This document shows positions 3,782 through 7,821 of a stretch of 7,837 bases of DNA, in pieces; position 1 is the first letter of the stretch; every line of letters starts with the position of its first letter. The stretch covers positions 1 to 7,837 of the forward strand of contig JAUSKK010000021.1 in NCBI GenBank assembly GCA_030649345.1, in the 5' to 3' direction. The position numbers and the translations under genes were made by a program. This stretch comes from Candidatus Iainarchaeum sp. Lineage in GTDB: Archaea > Iainarchaeota > Iainarchaeia > Iainarchaeales > 0-14-0-20-34-12. The notes under the pieces were generated by a model that searched no databases, was not told the origin of the DNA, and saw only the letters and a list, made by a program, of their open reading frames with translations.

Positions 3782-4456
3782 ATGCGAAAAAAAGCAGTAA
3801 TTGTAATTGCCGCCTTTAATGAAGAAGAATCCTTGGGCCGTACTCTAGACTTAATCAAAGCAACGCGTTTGCCTGCACAAATTATACTAGTCAATGATGG
3901 TTCTACAGATAAAACTCGAGCAATTGCTTTAGCTAAAGGAGCCCAAGTCATTGACATGGTGGATAAAACAAATCAATCCAAAAATCGCGGTAAAGCGAAT
4001 GCAATTTTTGCTGGATTGCGTGCTGCTTTGAAATTTAATCCAACTTCAGTGGTTACCTTAGATGCAGATATGTTAACTGTTCCGCGTGTTTCTTTAAAAG
4101 AATTAATTGATTCAGCTCATACAGCTACACGCATAGGAAAAATTGCAATGCATGTTGCACCGTATGCGGAAGGAACCTTTGAACCGCACACATACCTTTC
4201 TGGTTTGCGTTCGTTTAGTATTCCTGCTTTACATTATTTGCATAAATCTAAATTCAAAAGCATTCCGCGAGGTTATGGTTTGGAAACTTTTTTAGGAATC
4301 TTTTTTTCAAAATTTAGACAAAATACAAAAGGTTCGTTTCAATTAGAGCCTGGGTTTCGTTCAAGTGCCAGTAAACAACATCAAAAATCTGATATTGCTT
4401 TGACTCGAAAAAGAATTACAAAACGCTTTCGGCCGCGTTTTCGTTTGCATGTTTAA
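3782..4456 (+). CDS. Family 2 glycosyltransferase
   Basis: N-terminal VIVIAAFNEEESL...VNDGSTDKT and DAD motif (TLDADM). Start placed at ATG 3782 rather than TTG 3761. Confidence 0.8.
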   Translation: MRKKAVIVIAAFNEEESLGRTLDLIKATRLPAQIILVNDGSTDKTRAIALAKGAQVIDMVDKTNQSKNRGKANAIFAGLRAALKFNPTSVVTLDADMLTVPRVSLKELIDSAHTATRIGKIAMHVAPYAEGTFEPHTYLSGLRSFSIPALHYLHKSKFKSIPRGYGLETFLGIFFSKFRQNTKGSFQLEPGFRSSASKQHQKSDIALTRKRITKRFRPRFRLHV

Positions 4457-5340: not shown

Positions 5341-5420
5341 AATTAGATCGTGTGTTGGTTTTTTTTCCTTTTTTAAAATATTATACTAAAGTATATCCTT
5401 TCTTTTATTAATCATTTCCT

Positions 5421-5500
5421 CGGCCCCTTTTCTTTTTGGAAAAAAGAAAAGGTGTACGTTAGCCCAAAAGAAAAAAGTGCACTTCGTGCACTGGCGTGCG
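5421..5500 (+). ncRNA. Module copy B, free-standing outside any tRNA exon; candidate small RNA or 5' part of a long tRNA-Ser(GGA) precursor
   Basis: CGGCC; Y 5426-5437 CCTTTTCTTTTT; loop GGA; R1 5441-5452; linker TGTACGTTAGCCC; R2 5466-5476 AAAAGAAAAAA; hairpin GTGCAC-TTC-GTGCAC 5477-5491; TGGC. A/T boxes lie upstream (5371-5398) and T-rich tracts downstream (5513-5529). Confidence 0.5.
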
Positions 5501-5526
5501 GTTATTAATAATTTCTCTTTACTTTT

Positions 5527-5535
5527 CTTATAATC
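5527..5535 (+). promoter_or_regulatory. A/T box CTTATAATC, second copy of the 22-30 box
   Basis: Identical 9-mer about 90 nt upstream of the tRNA-Ser(GGA) 5' end. Confidence 0.3.
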
Positions 5536-5569
5536 GTATTCGGTACGTATTTGCATCTTAATGATGTCC

Positions 5570-5624
5570 GCGCTGCTGAGCAACAGCGAAAGCAGTGCTA
5601 AAGCGTCAACCGATTTTGCGGTTG
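5570..5624 (+). other. Structured 5' leader of tRNA-Ser(GGA) with two hairpins
   Basis: Hairpin 1 is GCGCTGCT (5570-5577) / AGCAGTGC (5591-5598) with 13-nt loop GAGCAACAGCGAA. Hairpin 2 is CAACCG (5607-5612) / CGGTTG (5619-5624). The tRNA starts 2 nt later. Confidence 0.5.
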
Positions 5625-5664
5625 TTGCAGAGATGGCGGAGCGGTCAAACGCACTAGCCTGGAA

Positions 5665-5868
5665 CGGCCTTTTCTTTCTTTGCGAAAGAAAGAAAATGTA
5701 CGTTGCCAAAAGAAAGAACTGTGTGCCTTTCAGGCACTGGCTTTCGATTGGTTGAATTAGTCCGGTATATTTCTGTGCTGCTTTAGCACGATTAAAACGT
5801 GTTCGTTTTAATGTGCATTAAGCCTTTGGCTTAATTGCAGCACGTGCTATCAACCGGCACCCCGGTTG
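5665..5868 (+). ncRNA. 204-nt structured intron of tRNA-Ser(GGA): module copy C, a three-way junction and a terminal hairpin
   Basis: Module 5665-5741. Closing stem GTGCTGC 5775-5781 / GCAGCAC 5837-5843 encloses hairpins 5786-5816 (13 bp, TGTT loop) and 5819-5833 (TAAGCC-TTT-GGCTTA). Terminal hairpin is CAACCGG-CACC-CCGGTTG 5851-5868. Confidence 0.75.
5670..5718 (+). repeat. Module copy C: Y 5670-5681, loop GCG, R1 5685-5696, linker TGTACGTTGCC 5697-5707, R2 5708-5718
   Basis: Y=TTTTCTTTCTTT, R1=AAAGAAAGAAAA, R2=AAAAGAAAGAA, the mirror of R1. Confidence 0.8.
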
Positions 5869-5916
5869 AGCTAGATCCTTTACGGGATACGCGAGTTCGA
5901 ATCTCGTTCTCTGCGA

Positions 5917-5978: not shown

Positions 5979-7226
5979 ATGAAGGAAAATTTGGGAGAAA
6001 CATTCAAAGACAAAGTAGACATCTATAACTATCCTAAAAAGATTAAACGTCAACTAGAGAAACTAAATGAATTAGATGCACATAATTCTAAACTAATTTT
6101 GGATTTCTATCGAACTTATTGCATTTCAAATAATCTAACCCATCCAAGAACCTTTAAGGCACTGAATACCCTTTACTTGATTGCAAAACGCACTCAATGT
6201 CCTTTAGACAATATTACGCTTGATGTAATTCGTGAACTAAAAGCTCAATTGCGAGAAAAAAAGTTATCTGACTTCACAGTGAATGACTATGTTACTCATA
6301 TCAAAACATATTTGATTCACTTAGATAAGAAGAAATATGCTGACTTACTGGATTCTAGGGAACTTAAGTTCATTGATGGATATAAAACAAAAGCAAAGCT
6401 TACGACTGATGACTTATGCAATGAACAAGACCTTAGAAATATTTTAACTGCCTGTAAAAACACGTATGAGTCTGTTTTGGCTTATTTACTTATTGAATCT
6501 GCTTGCAGAATTTCTGAGTTAATGAATATTCGAATCAAAGACTTAAAGTTTGATGAAAATGGATGTGACGCTGAAATTACTAAAAGTAAAACTGCAACAG
6601 GTGTTCGAACTATTCGTTTAGTTCAATCTCGTCAAATATTGCAAAAATGGCTTGAAGAACATCCACAGCGAACTGACAGAACTGCATTGGTTTTGCTTTC
6701 GCCTAAAGGAAGAGTTTATTCTTATGCAGCCGTGAAGAAAATTTGGAAAGCAGTAATCAAACGTGCTGGAATTGATGCAAGTAAGTTAACTAATTTTCAT
6801 GCTTATCGTGCTCTTCGCTACACTGCACTAGAATCTTCTGGTAAGTTGTCTCAAATGGAAATCAATATGCATATGGGTTGGAGTGCACAAGGTGGAGCTA
6901 GACAAGCTCAACGATACTCAAGACATTCTTACAATAACCTAAAACAAAAAATGAATGAATTAAATGGAATTATTAAACCTAAAGAAATTGAAAGAAAAAA
7001 TCAGTTTGAAAATAAAGTTTGTTTAAGCTGCTTTTCTGTTTATGATACAATCGCTATGTTTTGTAAAAAATGTAATATTCCATTAGATGAAAGTTTAAAG
7101 AAAAAGAAAGAATTATTCGAAAAAAGCGAACTAATCGAGTATGCTGCAGGAAAAGAAAAACTAAAACAATACATTTTCGAAATAATGGAAGAATACTTCA
7201 AAGAGAAAGGGGTTATTGCTGATTAG
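5979..7226 (+). CDS. Tyrosine recombinase / integrase with a C-terminal zinc-ribbon extension
   Basis: Catalytic pattern: R (ESACRISEL), K (TKSKTATGVRTI), H-x-x-R (FHAYRALR), W in place of the second His (MGWS), Y (QRYSRH). CxxC-x10-CxxC at 7020-7073. Start placed at ATG 5979, preceded by AGGAG (5967-5971), rather than GTG 5973. Confidence 0.85.
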   Translation: MKENLGETFKDKVDIYNYPKKIKRQLEKLNELDAHNSKLILDFYRTYCISNNLTHPRTFKALNTLYLIAKRTQCPLDNITLDVIRELKAQLREKKLSDFTVNDYVTHIKTYLIHLDKKKYADLLDSRELKFIDGYKTKAKLTTDDLCNEQDLRNILTACKNTYESVLAYLLIESACRISELMNIRIKDLKFDENGCDAEITKSKTATGVRTIRLVQSRQILQKWLEEHPQRTDRTALVLLSPKGRVYSYAAVKKIWKAVIKRAGIDASKLTNFHAYRALRYTALESSGKLSQMEINMHMGWSAQGGARQAQRYSRHSYNNLKQKMNELNGIIKPKEIERKNQFENKVCLSCFSVYDTIAMFCKKCNIPLDESLKKKKELFEKSELIEYAAGKEKLKQYIFEIMEEYFKEKGVIAD

Positions 7227-7821
7227 TTAACTTTTGTTTGTTTGATTTATTAACTAAATATACACTTATTTCTACAAATTCATTTATTTTATTTTCTTTC
7301 CACATCTCTAAGTCTTTCACGTATTTAATATTCCCTGTATTTTTTTTTCTAAAATTAAATTTGATTGAATGGGCATAGTCATTTATTTTTTGTTTTATTT
7401 TAGACTCACTGTCACTGCGTTCAATAGAAAAATTATTTGCAAGTTTTTTTATGGTTTGATTAAAATTATCTTTTTTTATAAGCTGAACTAAGTTAATAAT
7501 TAATTCATTAACTATGTCTTTGTTAACGCGTTTGTCTTCTATTAAGCCTTTACAAATATCACGTTCTAAATCAGCTACTTTTGTATCTTTTGCGGCGTTA
7601 TTTAAAAAAAATAACCTCGAAATTGGATTATTCCAATAATTGACCATTTTCTTAATAACTGTTCCTTTTTCATATTGCCAAATAATACTTTCTATTAAAA
7701 ATGATAAATCTGTGTAAAAATAAATAGTTTCTTTGTTTTTATTTGTTTTACTAATTTCCTTAGAAAAAAATGGTTGCGTTAAAAATTTGTTGAGCCATTC
7801 ATTTTTGTTTAAGGAATACAC
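7213..7821 (-). CDS. Hypothetical protein, Lys/Asn/Ile-rich, element cargo; N-terminus may lie beyond the window
   Basis: Long ORF convergent with the integrase and overlapping it by 14 nt. The annotated start is GTG, and the frame stays open upstream to 7837. Confidence 0.5.
   Translation of the reverse strand: MYSLNKNEWLNKFLTQPFFSKEISKTNKNKETIYFYTDLSFLIESIIWQYEKGTVIKKMVNYWNNPISRLFFLNNAAKDTKVADLERDICKGLIEDKRVNKDIVNELIINLVQLIKKDNFNQTIKKLANNFSIERSDSESKIKQKINDYAHSIKFNFRKKNTGNIKYVKDLEMWKENKINEFVEISVYLVNKSNKQKLTNQQ

Follow-up and report, generated by a model that had tools for sequence, protein, structure and literature searches.

A long composite intron in an archaeal tRNA-Ser(GGA) gene and the clade-wide, triplex-type repeat at its start

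The tRNA-Ser(GGA) gene and its intron

The stretch of DNA analysed here (hereafter the window) comprises positions 1 to 7,837 of contig JAUSKK010000021.1 of Candidatus Iainarchaeum sp. (assembly GCA_030649345.1) and carries a tRNA-Ser(GGA) gene that is interrupted by a 204-nt intron; window features lie on the forward (+) strand unless marked otherwise. The 5′ exon (5627–5664) supplies tRNA positions 1–37, with the anticodon GGA at 5661–5663, and the 3′ exon (5869–5915) supplies positions 38–73. The intron (5665–5868) occupies the canonical position 37/38, as judged from ARAGORN, folding and a scan for splice motifs. When the exons are joined by hand, ARAGORN recognizes the 85-nt product as a class II tRNA-Ser(GGA) with an acceptor stem of 7 bp, all of them Watson-Crick, an anticodon stem of 5 bp, a long variable arm, the T-loop UUCGAAU and G73. 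The exons by themselves give the complete cloverleaf that goes with an archaeal bulge-helix-bulge (BHB) intron, and an alternative junction at 36/37 (loop CUGGAGA) yields a cloverleaf that is equally acceptable to ARAGORN. With introns allowed, the program reports two genes in the window, at 5626–5916 (204-nt intron) and at 171–361 (102-nt intron), in the first of which it starts the intron 4 nt too early and so mislabels the anticodon. ARAGORN at default settings and Rfam report no tRNA across the window, as expected for introns of such length; tRNA predictors applied to DPANN genomes need intron limits above 200 nt. The host is archaeal according to its CTP-dependent riboflavin kinase gene (PF01982) and neighbouring genes, which include two of the DMRL_synthase family (lumazine synthase and an archaeal-type riboflavin synthase), and every related locus found comes from an archaeal metagenome-assembled genome (MAG) of the Iainarchaeota/Diapherotrites type.

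The intron is predicted to fold with a minimum free energy of −73.9 kcal/mol, versus −49.2 ± 4.2 kcal/mol for 200 shuffled sequences (z = −5.8; 0/200 as good), into a 12-bp pyrimidine/purine (Y/R) hairpin (5670–5696), a GC hairpin, a three-way junction (5775–5843) and a terminal hairpin (5851–5868). Its first 54 nt (5665–5718) are a copy of a repeat that we call the family-1 module (covariance model R1, 58.6 bits, E = 2.8e-12). The 5′ half of this copy consists of CGGCC (5665–5669), a Y tract (5670–5681), the loop GCG (5682–5684) and the purine tract R1 (5685–5696); the 3′ half consists of the linker UGUACGUU (5697–5704), GCC (5705–5707) and a second purine tract, R2 (5708–5718), which mirrors R1 at 11/11 positions. 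A P3-like closure, GCCA/UGGC, encloses R2 and the GC hairpin (GUGCC 5723–5727 with GGCAC 5733–5737) in a fold spanning 5705–5741, a layout that is shared with a second copy in the leader of the gene. The three-way junction, elements of which also recur in the leader, has the closing stem GUGCUGC/GCAGCAC and two perfect hairpins, and the terminal hairpin, CAACCGG-CACC-CCGGUUG, includes in its 3′ arm a CCGG (5862–5865) that also figures in the scan for splice motifs. The intron would thus be composite, with the module making up the opening 54 nt (or about 77 nt, up to 5741, when the P3 stem is counted) and lineage-specific perfect hairpins the other 125–150 nt, and would not be a dedicated regulatory RNA. 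We consider it likely that this tRNA-Ser(GGA) gene, which looks functional, belongs to an Iainarchaeota-type DPANN archaeon and has a composite BHB intron that starts in a clade-wide, triplex-prone repeat.

Searches for other kinds of RNA in this region were negative. No group I core (P3–P8, G-binding site) was seen in the intron, and Rfam, both at gathering thresholds and at E ≤ 10, returned nothing for the intron, the module or the leader, including matches of the snoRNA type. No box C (RUGAUGA) and box D (CUGA) with a 10–12-nt guide were found reading 5665–5868, and a BLAST search with the 3′ 150 nt of the intron and the leader against all fetched loci gave no significant homologue. The euryarchaeal tRNA-Trp intron, which carries a box C/D small RNA (PMC4090602), is comparable in being a long archaeal intron that holds a separately folding RNA unit, but neither C/D boxes nor guide complementarity were found in the window intron, and its module is not specific to a single tRNA. 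Open reading frames (ORFs) that overlap 5627–5915 are spurious, because they read across the tRNA exons.

An original prediction for this locus had proposed a tRNA-Ser(GGA) gene with an ORF-free, densely folded 204-nt intron at 37/38 or alternatively at 36/37. Its coordinates are all correct, and the gene, the two possible junctions, the want of a genuine ORF and the fold with its module, three-way junction and terminal hairpin have all held up. The length of the intron, which had been presented as unusual, is exceptional relative to surveyed archaeal tRNA introns (11–129 nt; PMC4090602) but ordinary within this clade, where the loci examined typically have introns of 75–254 nt headed by a module of family 1 or 2. 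Finally, the module had been taken for a domain of the intron; it is instead a genome-wide repeat, which is also present in leaders, trailers, spacers and a permuted tRNA gene.

We regard it as very improbable that the gene is a decaying pseudogene, disabled by insertion of a repeat cassette while its function is supplied from elsewhere. Decay would fit with a BHB motif that is the weakest of the set, with the altered start of the module (CGGCC) and with the integrase gene next door, but every cloverleaf stem is preserved, those of the acceptor and the anticodon being free of mismatches, the long variable arm and G73 that serve as identity features are retained, an oligo-T tract follows the gene, and Ser(GGA) orthologues in five other MAGs have module introns at the same position.

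A repeat family with triplex-type covariation and a positional rule

An exact-pattern scan of species-representative genomes yielded 85 related loci, which are cited below by number where needed. The Y/R hairpin is present in 45 matches (42 from the scan and 3 in the window), all of them in archaeal MAGs, of which most bear the label Iainarchaeum, ainarchaeum or Diapherotrites. The rest of the pattern matches are bare hits in bacteria, without the hairpin. In 346 kb of related loci, covariance model R1 recovers 56 copies of full length; the window has three, at 212–272, 5421–5477 and 5665–5718. The family-1 consensus reads CUGCC(C), a Y tract of 9–16 nt, a loop of 2–4 nt, R1, UGUAAGUU, GCC(C) and R2. 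The copy at 5665–5718 follows the order CUGCC, Y, loop, R1, UGUAMGUU-GCC, R2, deviating in its CGGCC start and UGUACGUU linker as does locus L064; a metagenome scan with the UGUACGUU variant gave 68 loci, but only one proved real, and it is identical to L064. In viral contigs of IMG/VR the pattern matched 24 times, never together with the hairpin. In one MAG (STA_60) the module is present on at least 11 contigs, and in having many near-identical copies at unrelated loci it resembles a miniature inverted-repeat transposable element (MITE); at three unrelated loci of one MAG (L013, L017 and L046) the Y, R1 and R2 tracts, the loop and the linker all parse identically. Copies of a second module family (RGCC, Y, loop, R1, CCYUGGG, mirror R2 and a short hairpin) begin introns, follow tRNA 3′ ends or stand free (L002, L006, L013, L017, L022, L050, L068, L079, L080 and L081). 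Searches of open-access literature for DPANN or Iainarchaeum tRNA introns and for archaeal triplex motifs brought up no account of such an element. At two loci (L011 6925–7040 and L016 7230–7350) the linker and purine tract (UGUAAGUUGCC followed by R) are tandemly repeated two to three times after a single hairpin.

The relation between the three tracts is the defining property of the module. R2 is the reverse of R1, and hence the parallel complement of Y, in a fixed register, perfectly so in 36 of 41 distinct copies. Identity of R2 to the mirror is 97.4%, versus 84.3 ± 1.3% when the Y of one copy is paired with the R2 of another (0/5000 permutations). The match is complete in the window (11/11 in the intron copy, 14/14 and 10/10 in the two others), it holds in asymmetric tracts such as those of L058 (UUUUCUUUUUCUCUUU / AAAAGAAAAAGAGAAA, 16/16), and the length of R2 follows that of the stem across copies. 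The same mirror logic governs the second family, in which the linker is different, and variants in tRNA-Cys introns. To our knowledge, mirror repeats are not produced by any copying process, which argues for selection for a third strand. The module thus bears the signature of an intrastrand triplex, in which R2 appears to have been selected as the third strand. Base pairs of the stem comprise 692 Watson-Crick, 4 G·U and 2 C·A pairs, so that there is no strand asymmetry, as would fit a constraint acting on both strands or on triads. A model in which R2 replaces R1 on Y as a switch was considered and is less probable: quasi-symmetric tracts would allow it in 30/41 copies, but the fixed-register mirror fits 36/41, with no freedom of offset.

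The three tracts have the geometry of the established class I–IV scheme, the Y-R-R (+) strand corresponding to class II (purine motif) and its complement to class IV (pyrimidine motif), as these intrastrand triplexes are defined in PMC4666352. The closest precedent for the module is found in the bacterial PIT/BoxC/TMECO repeats, which are of the intrastrand-triplex type and are linked to genome rearrangement (PMC4666352). Both have Y, R (Watson-Crick) and R (mirror) on one strand, are multi-copy and intergenic, and share the link to rearrangement. Unlike these repeats, the module is A/T-rich rather than G/C-rich, has 9–16 triads versus the 6–15 of the ITxF search, and is archaeal, located at tRNA exon ends and part of splice motifs. 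It also falls outside the ITxF rule that both loops be 1–6 nt, since its first loop is 2–4 nt and its second connector is 11–12 nt and conserved (UGUAAGUU-GCC).

All copies of the module are intergenic or intronic, and their polarity at tRNA exon ends follows a strict rule. The CUGCC end lies 0–5 nt from a tRNA exon boundary in 31 of the 56 copies: at the first nucleotide of an intron, sense to the tRNA (10 copies), at a tRNA 5′ end, antisense (10 copies), at a tRNA 3′ end, sense (7 copies), and at the 3′ end of an intron, antisense (4 copies). The four other combinations of position and orientation have none. The base of the module hairpin faces the exon in every exon-end copy, a single polarity throughout. 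Module-bearing introns were found in tRNAs for Ser, Gly, Tyr, Cys, Arg and Ala. For Ser(GGA), the module is intronic in the window and in L019, but in L016 it comes after the 3′ end of a gene that has no intron. Among 23 free copies examined, there are 8 in which the CUGCC end follows, at 1–5 nt, the stop codon of a gene in the same orientation; Rfam found only tRNAs at 18 loci with free copies, which indicates that these copies do not abut other known RNA genes. A role as terminator or promoter was also considered; it fails to explain the copies in introns and the antisense copies at tRNA 5′ ends.

Predicted splicing of the intron and the paralogous leader

A systematic scan over helix and bulge combinations identified, as the best BHB candidate in the window intron, a central helix H of CUGG (5659–5662, tRNA positions 32–35) with CCGG (5862–5865), 4 bp including one G·U, flanked by the 5′ bulge AAC, the 3′ bulge UUGA and an outer helix h′ of GG/CC only. 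By comparison with the strict hBHBh′ form (two 3-nt bulges and a 4-bp helix), the 5′ bulge has 3 nt, the 3′ bulge 4 nt, and h′ 2 bp. The intron resembles other archaeal introns at 37/38 in lying one nucleotide 3′ of the anticodon, in leaving a normal cloverleaf and in the predicted pairing of positions 32–35 with its 3′ end, and its relatives show the 3-4-3 motif; it differs in being longer than the surveyed range, in its 4-nt bulge and 2-bp h′, and in having a genome-wide repeat at its start. Textbook 3-4-3 motifs are present in the module introns of AR10 (L019), L023, L052, L070 and L082, and L007 and the window tRNA-Ser(UGA) show the same geometry with 3/4 pairs in H. In all seven of these, the pairing partner of the module’s (C)UGC(C) is GCA(G)/GGUG, which directly precedes a 4-bp H with 3-nt bulges. 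In antisense intron copies, the complement GCAG instead pairs with C32-U33-G34-N35 as the central helix, e.g. in the tRNA-Cys of L045. Relaxed motifs are tolerated by loop-bearing EndA-type endonucleases, which have been reported in many DPANN lineages (PMC5829648). The window itself contains no splicing endonuclease gene.

The intron has a paralogue immediately upstream of the gene. The 5′ leader cassette (5421–5626) comprises a module (5421–5477; covariance-model match, 60.4 bits), a degenerate middle, and the hairpin CAACCG/CGGUUG (5607–5624) followed by UU, and it can be aligned with the intron over its full length: module, GC hairpin and then UGGC, stem, and terminal hairpin. Its stem GCGCUGCU/AGCAGUGC matches the closing stem of the three-way junction with one compensatory change (U:A to C:G), and its hairpin, nearly identical to that of the intron, ends 2 nt before tRNA position 1. 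Alignment of the post-module parts of leader and intron beats 500/500 shuffles (z about 4.4). No BHB was found by eye for the leader cassette. Upstream of the cassette there is a TATA-like box, TTTTAAAATATTATA, at about 5371–5386. At 5561–5577 the leader also contains AUGAUGU ... CUGA, which resembles box C and box D; only about 7 nt separate the two, which makes them unfit for a guide RNA.

Transcription would include this leader of about 200 nt, which would be cut off at the tRNA 5′ end. The module would fold independently, its 5′ pentamer (CGGCC here, CUGCC elsewhere) providing the intron side of h′, and an endonuclease would excise the intron at the relaxed BHB formed by C32–G35 and CCGG 5862–5865, for which the terminal hairpin must open.

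The central helix CUGG/CCGG and the 4-nt 3′ bulge UUGA under a 37/38 junction had been proposed in the original prediction, and the scan supports both. It had also been noted that CCGG 5862–5865 doubles as the 3′ arm of the 7-bp hairpin CAACCGG/CCGGUUG, so that splice helix and hairpin would be mutually exclusive; this is true on paper, where with the cloverleaf enforced the hairpin conformer reaches −110.5 kcal/mol and the BHB conformer −104.7 kcal/mol, a difference of 5.8 kcal/mol in favour of the hairpin. From this, one might suppose that the hairpin is a switch that masks the 3′ splice site and that choice of conformer regulates splicing of tRNA-Ser(GGA), the more so as CCGG 5862–5865 is common to the hairpin and the only plausible central helix and a third CCGG (5762–5765) allows further alternative pairings. 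We think such a switch unlikely. The leader, in which no splicing takes place, has the same hairpin 2 nt before the tRNA starts, which points to the masking hairpin as a feature of the cassette; the module introns of relatives have plain canonical BHBs without such a hairpin; the fetched loci offer no homologue of the 3′ two-thirds of the intron in which covariation could support a switch; and nearest-neighbour energies leave out the tRNA body and enzyme binding. Of the self-masking idea, the shared CCGG stands and the regulatory part lacks comparative support. The terminal hairpin is an inherited piece of a duplicated cassette and not evidently a splicing switch. The clade-wide triplex-prone repeat with its positional rule is a more interesting result than self-masking.

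The two cassettes might alternatively be precursors of a stable small RNA, freed by the tRNA-processing enzymes, in the way that box C/D RNAs come out of the tRNA-Trp intron, and protected or defined by the triplex. MALAT1 and MEN-beta provide a model for such an arrangement, in that an ENE triple helix is followed by a tRNA-like RNase P site. Antisense module copies resemble them in the order Y tract, linker, Y tract, loop and R tract, with a tRNA 5′ end 0–2 nt further on, and RNase P would there make 3′ ends in a U·A-U-type triplex of MALAT1 geometry; unlike them, the window intron copy has the opposite orientation (purine motif), and a stabilized upstream RNA would here be hypothetical. A small-RNA function would also fit the two paralogous cassettes of ~205 nt in one transcription unit, each bounded by tRNA-processing sites, the strong fold of the intron, and the keeping of modules at orthologous sites, where tract and R2 lengths change together. 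On the other hand, the module occurs in both orientations relative to host transcripts, conservation is limited to the module and does not extend to the remaining cassette, the near-absence of G·U pairs is unusual for a constraint on RNA only, and the intron has no Rfam family match and no evident box C/D motifs. On balance we find the small-RNA explanation rather doubtful.

Origin of the intron and the surroundings of the gene

We propose that the intron most likely originated when a module became positioned next to the 3′ end of the 5′ exon, a placement seen at many other tRNA exon ends in this clade. More generally, and tentatively, the module, inserted or selected at exon ends in a fixed polarity, may be what gives rise to long introns, to structured leaders and trailers and even to permuted tRNA genes in this phylum; its spread or processing would then require the triplex, in single-stranded DNA or antisense RNA. 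Consistent with insertion, one and the same tRNA identity carries the module at differing boundaries in different MAGs, and direct repeats of 11–23 nt bracket module segments, several of them duplicating a tRNA end or a gene start. These repeats measure 23 nt, from a gene start, at L003 4170–4320 (orthologue L055), 16 nt at L053 about 3990–4080, 16–17 nt of a tRNA-His 3′ end at L073 1930–2160 (−), 17 nt at L022 1040–1170 / L034, and 11–12 nt of a tRNA-Ser 5′ end at L080 2850–2950. They look like target duplications, though of variable length.

Several observations weigh against the reading of the locus as a spliced tRNA gene with an intron that arose by insertion of a triplex-forming repeat. 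Of the BHBs compared, that of the window Ser(GGA) is the poorest, with a 3′ bulge of 4 nt and an h′ of 2 bp, and together with its predicted deficit of 5.8 kcal/mol relative to the hairpin this weakens the case for splicing and for the predicted junction. A triplex on the tRNA-sense strand would be of the purine motif, which by the literature that PMC4666352 cites does not form in RNA. No empty site or presence/absence polymorphism was seen among the fetched loci, all of which were chosen as module carriers; neither a transposase nor terminal inverted repeats could be identified; and most copies lack flanking repeats, which differ in length where present. Orthologous loci whose flanks are only 68–82% identical still hold modules, which suggests long retention or function rather than recent mobility, and the lengths of tract and R2 co-vary between orthologues (L006, L079). 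The module therefore lacks the terminal inverted repeats and fixed-length duplication of a MITE, only its 5′ end being sharply defined. The evidence fits a mobile element as well as a domesticated functional one, and the two are compatible with each other.

The closest precedents for such an origin are in the TACK archaea. Similar introns occur in different tRNAs of Thermoproteales, which has been ascribed to intron transposition (Fujishima et al. 2010, as summarised in PMC4090602), and a mobile-element model of tRNA gene disruption, with a recombinase-bearing insertion, has been put forward for Caldiarchaeum (PMC3293823). Related introns across tRNA identities, a recombinase beside a disrupted tRNA and direct repeats of tRNA ends are common to these systems and to ours; the module differs in being found outside introns too, in its defined structure and strict polarity, and in its DPANN host. 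An integrase association as such was rejected as a general property of the module, being seen at only 2 of about 45 loci.

Circularly permuted tRNA genes of Iainarchaeota MAGs also contain the module. In L081 (3627–3887, +) and L068 (5814–6045, +), and probably in L062 from 1938, tRNA-Gln(UUG) is encoded in the order leader, 3′ half, intervening sequence of 160–190 nt, 5′ half, trailer; the re-joined halves are recognized as tRNA-Gln by ARAGORN, and leader and trailer form a perfect BHB (H CUUU/AAAG, h′ 9–12 bp). Two inverted triplex modules make up the intervening sequence, which seems to have opposite orientations in L081 and L068. Permuted tRNA genes are known from Cyanidioschyzon and Thermofilum pendens (PMC3978253, PMC3218864), and those of L081 and L068 are like them in having the 3′ half first and a perfect leader/trailer BHB; they are unlike them in the two inverted modules of the intervening sequence, and they belong to related loci, not to the window. 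Just 3′ of the permuted gene, a small ORF of about 65 aa (motif ...KKWMGQYWHKKC...) is kept in three MAGs (L081 3936–4131, L068 6146–6347, L062 downstream of 2000).

The module may alternatively act as DNA, as an intrastrand triplex or H-DNA-cruciform at tRNA exons that would influence transcription, replication or site-specific recombination, for example the access of an integrase to attachment (att) sites in tRNAs, its presence in intron RNA being incidental. We hold this to be possible, with the same reserve as our proposal for the spread of the module. Both orientations obey a single polarity rule at the DNA level, the stem is almost wholly Watson-Crick, bacterial intrastrand-triplex repeats are tied to genome rearrangement (PMC4666352), the permuted tRNA-Gln is built of modules with a segment apparently inverted between two MAGs, and integrase genes adjoin two module-bearing tRNAs (in the window and in L045). 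Furthermore, the pyrimidine-motif triplex forms in RNA and the purine motif does not, according to evidence cited in PMC4666352, and purine-motif triplexes are established for DNA (PMC4666352). A DNA role is harder to reconcile with the 5′ pentamer, which is clearly RNA-level as h′ in the BHB, G·U pairs included, and with the free copies, whose frequent contact with stop codons may equally be read as a role at RNA 3′ ends; triplex formation in vivo is itself putative.

The origin of introns, splits and permutation in archaeal tRNA genes is an old open question, for which mobile elements have been proposed earlier as a cause, without a recurrent, recognizable unit. The module is found where introns start and end, on either side of tRNAs and at the junction in a permuted tRNA, supplies part of the splice motif, and is a concrete sequence by which tRNA gene disruption may be tracked in population metagenomes. 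If our proposal is right, it would be an identifiable unit behind the disruption of archaeal tRNA genes. It would also be the first counterpart, in archaea and with a link to tRNAs, of the intrastrand-triplex repeats of bacteria.

The second intron-bearing gene of the window, tRNA-Ser(UGA) (172–360; ARAGORN, covariance model), has an intron of 102 nt (212–313) that opens with a family-1 module (212–272). The BHB of this gene is close to canonical, with H CUUG/AAAG, the bulges AGC and UUA, and h′ UGC/GUA. Its leader of about 65 nt (about 105–171) contains two hairpins. On the other side of tRNA-Ser(GGA), 64 nt from its 3′ end, a tyrosine recombinase gene (5979–7226; Phage_integrase, Pfam PF00589, E = 2.7e-14) is probably part of an integrated element that uses this tRNA; in L045, an integrase 24% identical to it adjoins an intron-bearing tRNA-Cys. 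An ORF of 202 aa without a Pfam match (7213–7821, −) comes after the recombinase gene, and the two are probably one end of the integrated element, its far att site lying outside the window. Within the lumazine synthase gene, a G+C-rich palindromic island (2745–2795; GGGGGAACCAAGGTTTCCCCC and flanks) stands amid A+T-rich DNA in the predicted N-terminal extension of the ORF, upstream of the Pfam domain, which begins at residue 25.

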